Shown here one piece after another: positions 40,728 to 40,835 of a stretch of 55,376 nt of DNA; within the stretch, counting starts at the first letter, position 1, and each line of letters opens with the position of its first letter. The position numbers and the translations under genes were made by a program. Source of the DNA: Escherichia coli (GTDB lineage: Bacteria; Pseudomonadota; Gammaproteobacteria; Enterobacterales; Enterobacteriaceae); NCBI RefSeq assembly GCF_003334255.1, contig NZ_QOWU01000035.1. One strand, 5' to 3'. The notes under the pieces are model-generated. The model ran no database searches. It was not told where the DNA came from and worked only from the letters and a program-made list of their open reading frames with translations.

Positions 40728-40835
40728 TCCCTCATTCCCGCTGTGGCCCACAGCGGGAATATCGTTGCCTCTCTATCACATAGATTTAACCCGCCCCCTC
40801 TCCTATTCTTTTCAGTGTGACCTCAGGAGGTTTCT

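Follow-up and report, generated by a model that had tools for sequence, protein, structure and literature searches.

A probable terminator-derived stem-loop without a U-tract at the 3′ end of the Escherichia coli yedEF mRNA

The window, that is, the whole stretch of 55,376 nt of Escherichia coli DNA analyzed here, carries on its + strand the genes yedE (39292-40497), encoding the selenium metabolism membrane protein YedE/FdhT, and yedF (40494-40727), encoding a TusA-like sulfurtransferase-like protein, both recognized as open reading frames and named according to the RefSeq annotation of strain 7/2 and of K-12. In E. coli the locus is ordered amyA-yedD-yedE-yedF-yedK, yedE being the first gene of the transcript at the end of which the structure described here is found. 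yedK, which encodes an SOS response-associated peptidase, is represented in the window by its 5′ part (40836-41261, + strand), cut by a rearrangement at about 41262. As yedK is co-directional with yedEF, transcriptional read-through would enter it. Between yedF and yedK lie a perfect palindrome of 27 nt (40734-40760, + strand), revealed both by the repeat finder and by folding as a stem-loop in the yedEF 3′ untranslated region, and then a spacer extending to the yedK ribosome-binding site (40761-40830, + strand), which is by its composition C-rich, G-poor and pyrimidine-rich.

The arms of the palindrome, at 40734-40746 and 40748-40760, comprise 13 nt each, are 100% complementary and are separated by a spacer of 1 nt, so that the + strand reads ATTCCCGCTGTGG-C-CCACAGCGGGAAT, in the context ...CAGAAGTAA TCCCTC ATTCCCGCTGTGG C CCACAGCGGGAAT ATCGTTGCC... 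It is separated by 6 nt from the TAA stop of yedF upstream and by 75 nt from the ATG of yedK (40836) downstream. These results confirm an earlier note on this DNA, which had described a perfect inverted repeat just after yedF and about 75 bp from the truncated yedK; the arm length that it gave, 14 bp, is in fact 13, and the string printed there amounts to 12+1+12. The palindrome is the longest short-spaced perfect inverted repeat within the window. When windows were simulated with a first-order Markov model of this one, allowing spacers of up to 8 nt, arms of at least 13 nt were obtained in 1 of 300, and in 3 of 40 in a smaller, earlier run.

The palindrome is highly conserved in E. coli. A 301-nt query around it is matched in 5378 of the 5426 complete E. 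coli genomes, and a 34-nt query retrieves the same 5378 genomes, with one site per genome. Each genome yields two BLAST places, which correspond to one palindrome matched on either strand, so that the element exists in a single copy and is no dispersed repeat. Accordingly, the search for additional copies that had been proposed along with the comparison of this intergenic region across strains finds none in these 5378 genomes with the 34-nt query, nor any beyond chance in the window when up to 2-3 mismatches are allowed.

The exact 34-mer of the window is found in only 634 genomes. Nine strains, including K-12 DH1 and O157:H7 EDL933, both with an intact yedK, were aligned at the palindrome. 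They differ by a loop base (G or A) and, at the foot of the stem, by position 40760 (T or C); as this position is a C in 7 of the 9, these seven strains have arms of 12 nt, and the stem of K-12 is of 11 bp. Most differences among the sampled variants concern the loop or the foot of the stem, the one exception being CB8671, in which a C-to-A change breaks only the loop-closing pair. With its three mismatches, the most divergent 34-mer retrieved retains all of the 11-bp stem TTCCCGCTGTG/CACAGCGGGAA, and none of the E. coli variants sampled departs from the core stem TTCCCGCTGT/ACAGCGGGAA.

The earlier note had also placed the palindrome close to an island junction, which holds only loosely: colinearity with K-12 extends across the whole intergenic region and 426 nt of yedK before it collapses at about 41262, 500 bp downstream of the palindrome. 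Strain 7/2 is 100% identical to the window; its yedK is truncated likewise, and an IS200/IS605 remnant, ybcM, ybcL and emrE come next. In the window (41262-42091), the end of colinearity is followed by this remnant, with a tnpB-like fragment on the - strand and tnpA on the + strand, and by ybcM, ybcL and emrE, according to the annotation of strain 7/2. The hairpin of an IS200/IS605 end or of an island junction should be adjacent to the mobile element and absent when the element is absent. Neither applies here: the palindrome is 500 bp away from the breakpoint and also occurs where there is no IS and yedK is intact, as in K-12 and EDL933. The suggested link to the island or rearrangement is thus not borne out: of the 5426 complete E. 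coli genomes, 5378 have a single copy of the palindrome, and K-12 and O157, whose yedK is intact, are among them. It is unrelated to the nearby genomic island, and a false lead is thereby removed, as it is no signature of the island junction. Among the matches listed for the 301-nt query, yedK is annotated as truncated or as a pseudogene in 6 of 30 genomes. Just upstream of the yedK ribosome-binding site, at 40816-40822, the window reads CAGTGTGACC and K-12 and five of the other sampled strains read CAGTATGATC, which contains a -10-like TATGAT, too near the yedK ATG for an obvious promoter.

As + strand RNA, the palindrome folds into a 12-bp stem, AUUCCCGCUGUG / CACAGCGGGAAU, closed by a GCC loop of 3 nt. 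The folding energy is -19.4 kcal/mol for the hairpin by itself and -24.3 kcal/mol for its 86-nt context (z = -4.8), and the - strand RNA folds equally well. Such a stable, G/C-rich stem-loop downstream of a stop codon is typical of intrinsic terminators. However, no T-run follows the stem on either strand, the tails being ATCGTTGCCT on the + strand, with 3 T in the 9 nt after the stem, and GAGGGATTAC on the - strand, and a U-rich tract, in which 8-9 nt would include about 5 U or more, is found neither in the window nor in any of the E. coli sampled. The palindrome is not called by a terminator consensus scan, and a promoter consensus scan gives nothing at its site. The two statements of the earlier note that there is no U-tract on the plus strand and that this is not a classic intrinsic terminator thus hold for the window and for every E. 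coli strain sampled: since no U-tract follows it, the hairpin is not a classic intrinsic terminator in E. coli. The first five nt past the G/C part of the stem, AAUAU, are nevertheless all A or U, and some intrinsic termination is possible with this A/U-rich tail near the stem (AAUAUCGUU). An RNase III substrate was also considered and rejected, as the stem is of only 12 bp. An Rfam scan of 39000-42500, with E values up to 10, gave no match.

YedF was searched for in 100,044 species genomes, which gave 80 Enterobacteriaceae loci. The DNA following the yedF stop was extracted from each and searched for its best single hairpin, the window being added to make 81 loci. In 70 of the 81 loci, a hairpin at least as strong as -12 kcal/mol begins no more than 15 nt past the yedF stop, vs 18 of 80 control segments. 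Twenty of these 70 hairpins have the appearance of classic terminators, often bidirectional ones, with a T-rich tail. The yedF stop codon itself varies among species (TAA, TAG or TGA), and the loops are not conserved. A SECIS element, which is a stem-loop directly 3′ of an in-frame UGA codon, is excluded, as the stop of yedF is UAA in E. coli; the variable stop and the unconserved loops across species point the same way.

The gene located after yedF varies widely among species. According to tblastn on the Enterobacteriaceae loci, yedK comes after yedF only in E. coli and Franconibacter. Another gene is found there in Salmonella arizonae, a convergent one in Citrobacter sp. R56, and a different ORF, of 134 aa, in an Escherichia cryptic-clade genome (L013). 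As the hairpin stays at yedF whatever gene follows, it belongs to the yedF 3′ end, and not to yedK or its promoter. In this cryptic-clade genome, the 134-aa ORF is followed by a yedL-like GNAT gene (2437-3486 of the locus), with the homologous hairpin CTCCCGCTGTTTCAGGCAGCGGGAG kept, and yedK is likewise missing after yedF in the cryptic-clade genomes L017, L025 and L026. In several Citrobacter, a REP-type element, GCCGGATG...TTATCCGGC, stands right after the yedF stop in place of the CTCCCG hairpin (loci L009, L010, L014, L015, L023, L027 and L040, at about 2235-2275); one kind of 3′ stem-loop is there replaced by another.

Sixteen sequences, from E. coli, other Escherichia, Salmonella arizonae and diarizonae, several Citrobacter and one Enterobacter, could be aligned in register around the motif (C/T)TCCCG(C/T)TG...CA(G/A)CGGGA(G/A). 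In the resulting 12-pair helix, 92.1% of the cells are standard pairs, and double-sided changes affect 6 of the 12 pairs, in 19 cells. Neither the observed pairing nor the covariation score was reached in any of 500 shuffles, and pairing falls to 38-60% when the 3′ partner is slid by 1-3 columns. RNAalifold independently predicts the same helix, with 11 pairs, 5 of which undergo compensatory changes. The strand can also be addressed, as G-U or U-G cells are valid only in + strand RNA, while A-C cells would be G-U on the - strand: there are 14 of the former vs 5 of the latter, and 8 vs 2 in the ten inner pairs. This excess, which perhaps represents 5-6 independent events, is a modest signal in favor of yedF-sense RNA, as opposed to an antisense RNA or a DNA site. 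The loop length ranges from 3 to 7 nt among the homologues. Taken together, the compensatory changes, the + strand G-U pairs and the variable loop are the signature of an RNA helix and not of a site for a dimer with fixed spacing.

Some of these homologous hairpins are followed by a T-run on their 3′ side, as in Citrobacter sp. MGH106 (...GGGAGATTTTTC) and in S. arizonae and diarizonae (...GGGAGACCTTTTT and ...GGGAGACATTTTTT); the run adjoins the stem or begins 2-3 nt beyond it. In E. coli, the element is therefore a U-less version of what appears to be the yedEF intrinsic terminator elsewhere. The earlier note had stated that its view would fall if the palindrome were conserved in all strains as part of an ordinary yedF terminator, with a U-tract on realignment; the hairpin is indeed conserved as a yedF 3′ structure, and the T-run is found only in orthologues outside E. 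coli. In our reading, the hairpin at the yedF 3′ end is ancestral in Enterobacteriaceae. The sequence TCTCTATCAC, found at 40771-40780, about 10 nt after the stem in E. coli, stands directly after the stem in Citrobacter sp. R56 (L029), and close variants of it occupy the same place in L031 and L035. This suggests that the E. coli lineage gained about 10 nt ((T/C)ATCGTT(G/A)CC) by insertion between the stem and a pyrimidine-rich tail.

Our results are best explained by a terminator-derived 3′ stem-loop of the yedEF mRNA, deprived of a U-tract in E. coli, which we consider, with good confidence, most likely to be a barrier to 3′ exonucleases. It is a real but ordinary feature, an unannotated member of the well-known terminator-type 3′ stem-loops. 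Because of the missing U-tract, it is best seen as a block to exonucleases that defines a 3′ end, and at most as a leaky terminator. The hairpin alone would most likely release RNA polymerase inefficiently. It would block the 3′-to-5′ exonucleases PNPase and RNase II, and transcripts of yedEF whose termination or cleavage occurs farther downstream, possibly via Rho loading on the C-rich spacer, would owe to this barrier a defined and stable 3′ end, the remaining transcription reading through into yedK. Our data establish the structure of the hairpin, where it lies, that it is conserved and covaries, and that it is single-copy; we infer the barrier role, the weak termination and any involvement of Rho.

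With intrinsic terminators, the palindrome shares a G/C-rich stem-loop a few nt past the last stop codon of an operon, as well as its homology to the T-run hairpins of Salmonella arizonae/diarizonae and Citrobacter sp. MGH106, but these terminators have a defining U-tract, whereas the E. coli hairpin lacks one on both strands and is followed 75 nt later by the co-directional yedK. Another system to compare is that of the E. coli transcripts which are Rho-dependent and end just after stable stem-loops devoid of U-tract, these stem-loops protecting against PNPase and RNase II, with rut sites located immediately downstream (Dar and Sorek, 2018; PMC6061677). The yedF hairpin is similarly a stable stem-loop without U-rich sequence behind it, ends a coding unit and is next to C-rich, G-poor sequence; unlike in those cases, however, yedK begins here after an untranslated spacer of no more than about 75 nt. 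In the 70 nt following the hairpin there are 23 C and 11 G, the 97.7th percentile of 70-nt windows, and 18 YC dimers, the 99.7th percentile, and this C-rich spacer is conserved in the nine E. coli strains aligned. Its composition might thus resemble that of a Rho-loading (rut) site. A comparison across species of the C/G ratio after U-less and T-run hairpins shows no greater C-richness behind the U-less ones (p = 0.06 for the reverse difference), and the rut idea is therefore without comparative support.

REP/BIME elements also act as intercistronic mRNA stabilizers, for example between malE and malF. The yedF hairpin shares with them its location between co-directional genes, where it could protect the upstream mRNA from 3′ exonucleases, and REP elements hold exactly the same post-yedF position in several Citrobacter species. 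They are, however, dispersed in many copies, while the E. coli yedF hairpin is single-copy and unrelated in sequence.

In published 3′-end data, the Term-seq tables of Adams et al. (2021; PMC7815308 supplements) are without any 3′ end assigned to yedF or yedK; they place a Rho termination region inside yedE and none after yedF. The Rho termination region inside yedE implies that the operon may be poorly transcribed, and it may be too weakly expressed, under the conditions of that study. TERMITe and SMRT-Cappable-seq data contain no entry for yedF or yedK, and the full-text literature on yedF in connection with a terminator or with yedK yielded nothing relevant. The neighboring gene yedD provides a mapped example of a U-less hairpin at the end of a Rho-dependent transcript: in K-12 its Term-seq 3′ end (2007645 -) comes after such a hairpin, with a Rho termination region (2007400 -) just downstream (PMC7815308 supplements). 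A U-less hairpin, CCCCGGCTTGCCGCCGGGG, lies in the window right after the yedD stop, at 38731-38749 on the - strand, between the convergent amyA and yedD, and that of K-12 is nearly identical, one tail base being different.

Among the alternatives, the hairpin could be an efficient Rho-independent terminator that ends yedEF despite its imperfect U-tract, yedK being transcribed from its own promoter. The position and the strength of the stem are typical of terminators, orthologues carry T-runs, and AAUAU follows the G/C part of the stem, but the presence of only 3 T in the 9 nt after the stem, the silence of the consensus scan, the absence of yedF 3′ ends from the Term-seq tables of PMC7815308 and that of any sigma-70-like yedK promoter between the hairpin and the ATG, even though the latter scan was strict, make this unlikely. 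Another possibility, which we regard as rather improbable, is that the hairpin without U-tract acts jointly with the C-rich spacer as a conditional attenuator, either Rho- or translation-dependent, that sets the extent of read-through from yedEF into yedK. Such an attenuator would date from the time at which yedK came to lie behind a former terminator in E. coli and the U-tract was lost, and, if true, it would couple a selenium/sulfur-transfer operon to the abasic-site crosslinking protein YedK.

The earlier note had mentioned a protein-binding palindrome as one possibility, which we consider here as a DNA-level site for a dimeric regulator, e.g. one controlling yedK. Although the perfect palindrome lies 75 nt upstream of the yedK start and its core arms are strongly conserved within E. 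coli, this reading is very improbable: the hairpin stays with yedF in species without yedK there, its arms change by compensatory substitutions and G-U pairs, the latter being mismatches in DNA, and the arms are 3 to 7 nt apart among the homologues, a variation that a dimeric DNA-binding protein would not accommodate. An operator would show conserved half-sites at a fixed spacing tied to a regulated promoter, which is not the case here. The LexA box has the spacing CTGT-N8-ACAG and the CRP box the spacing TGTGA-N6-TCACA, and, against these commonly quoted consensus sequences, both are rejected, the palindrome (CTGT-N5-ACAG) fitting neither. A chance palindrome without function is still conceivable from numbers alone, as a 13-nt perfect inverted repeat occurs in roughly 0.3-1% of random 55-kb windows, but the helix is maintained, with covariation, across genera, and 70 of 81 loci preserve its place right behind the yedF stop, so that this is extremely improbable. 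Finally, a dispersed, REP/BIME-like repeat or an IS200/IS605 or island-junction hairpin, suggested by the IS200/IS605 remnant about 500 bp downstream and by the REP elements of Citrobacter at the same post-yedF position, is as good as refuted by copy number and distribution, the element being single-copy per E. coli genome and not repeated elsewhere in the window, occurring also where the IS is missing and yedK is intact, away from the junction at about 41262 and unlike the REP consensus of the Citrobacter loci.

The terminator-derived stem-loop illustrates, on a small scale, how a terminator hairpin can lose its U-tract in nature and still be retained as an RNA structure. It is of modest evolutionary interest that the T-run is present in Salmonella arizonae/diarizonae and some Citrobacter and that there is none in E. 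coli, before a co-directional gene.

Several other palindromes of the window may be mentioned. In the yecJ-yecR intergenic region, which we take to be the azuC/isrB region of K-12, a perfect 10+4+10 palindrome, TTTATGTGAT gcaa ATCACATAAA (19741-19764), contains TGTGA-N6-TCACA, the half-sites and spacing of the CRP consensus. Downstream of yecJ, at 19549-19574, AAAAAACCTGC cgga GCAGGTTTTTT forms a hairpin with an A-run and a T-run, resembling a bidirectional terminator. Two further perfect, short-spaced inverted repeats are also terminator-like: CCCCTCTGCAT c ATGCAGAGGGG at 16804-16826, followed by AATTTTT on the + strand, and AGCAGCGGTA cgtcgt TACCGCTGCT at 9694-9719, with a run of seven T on the - strand.
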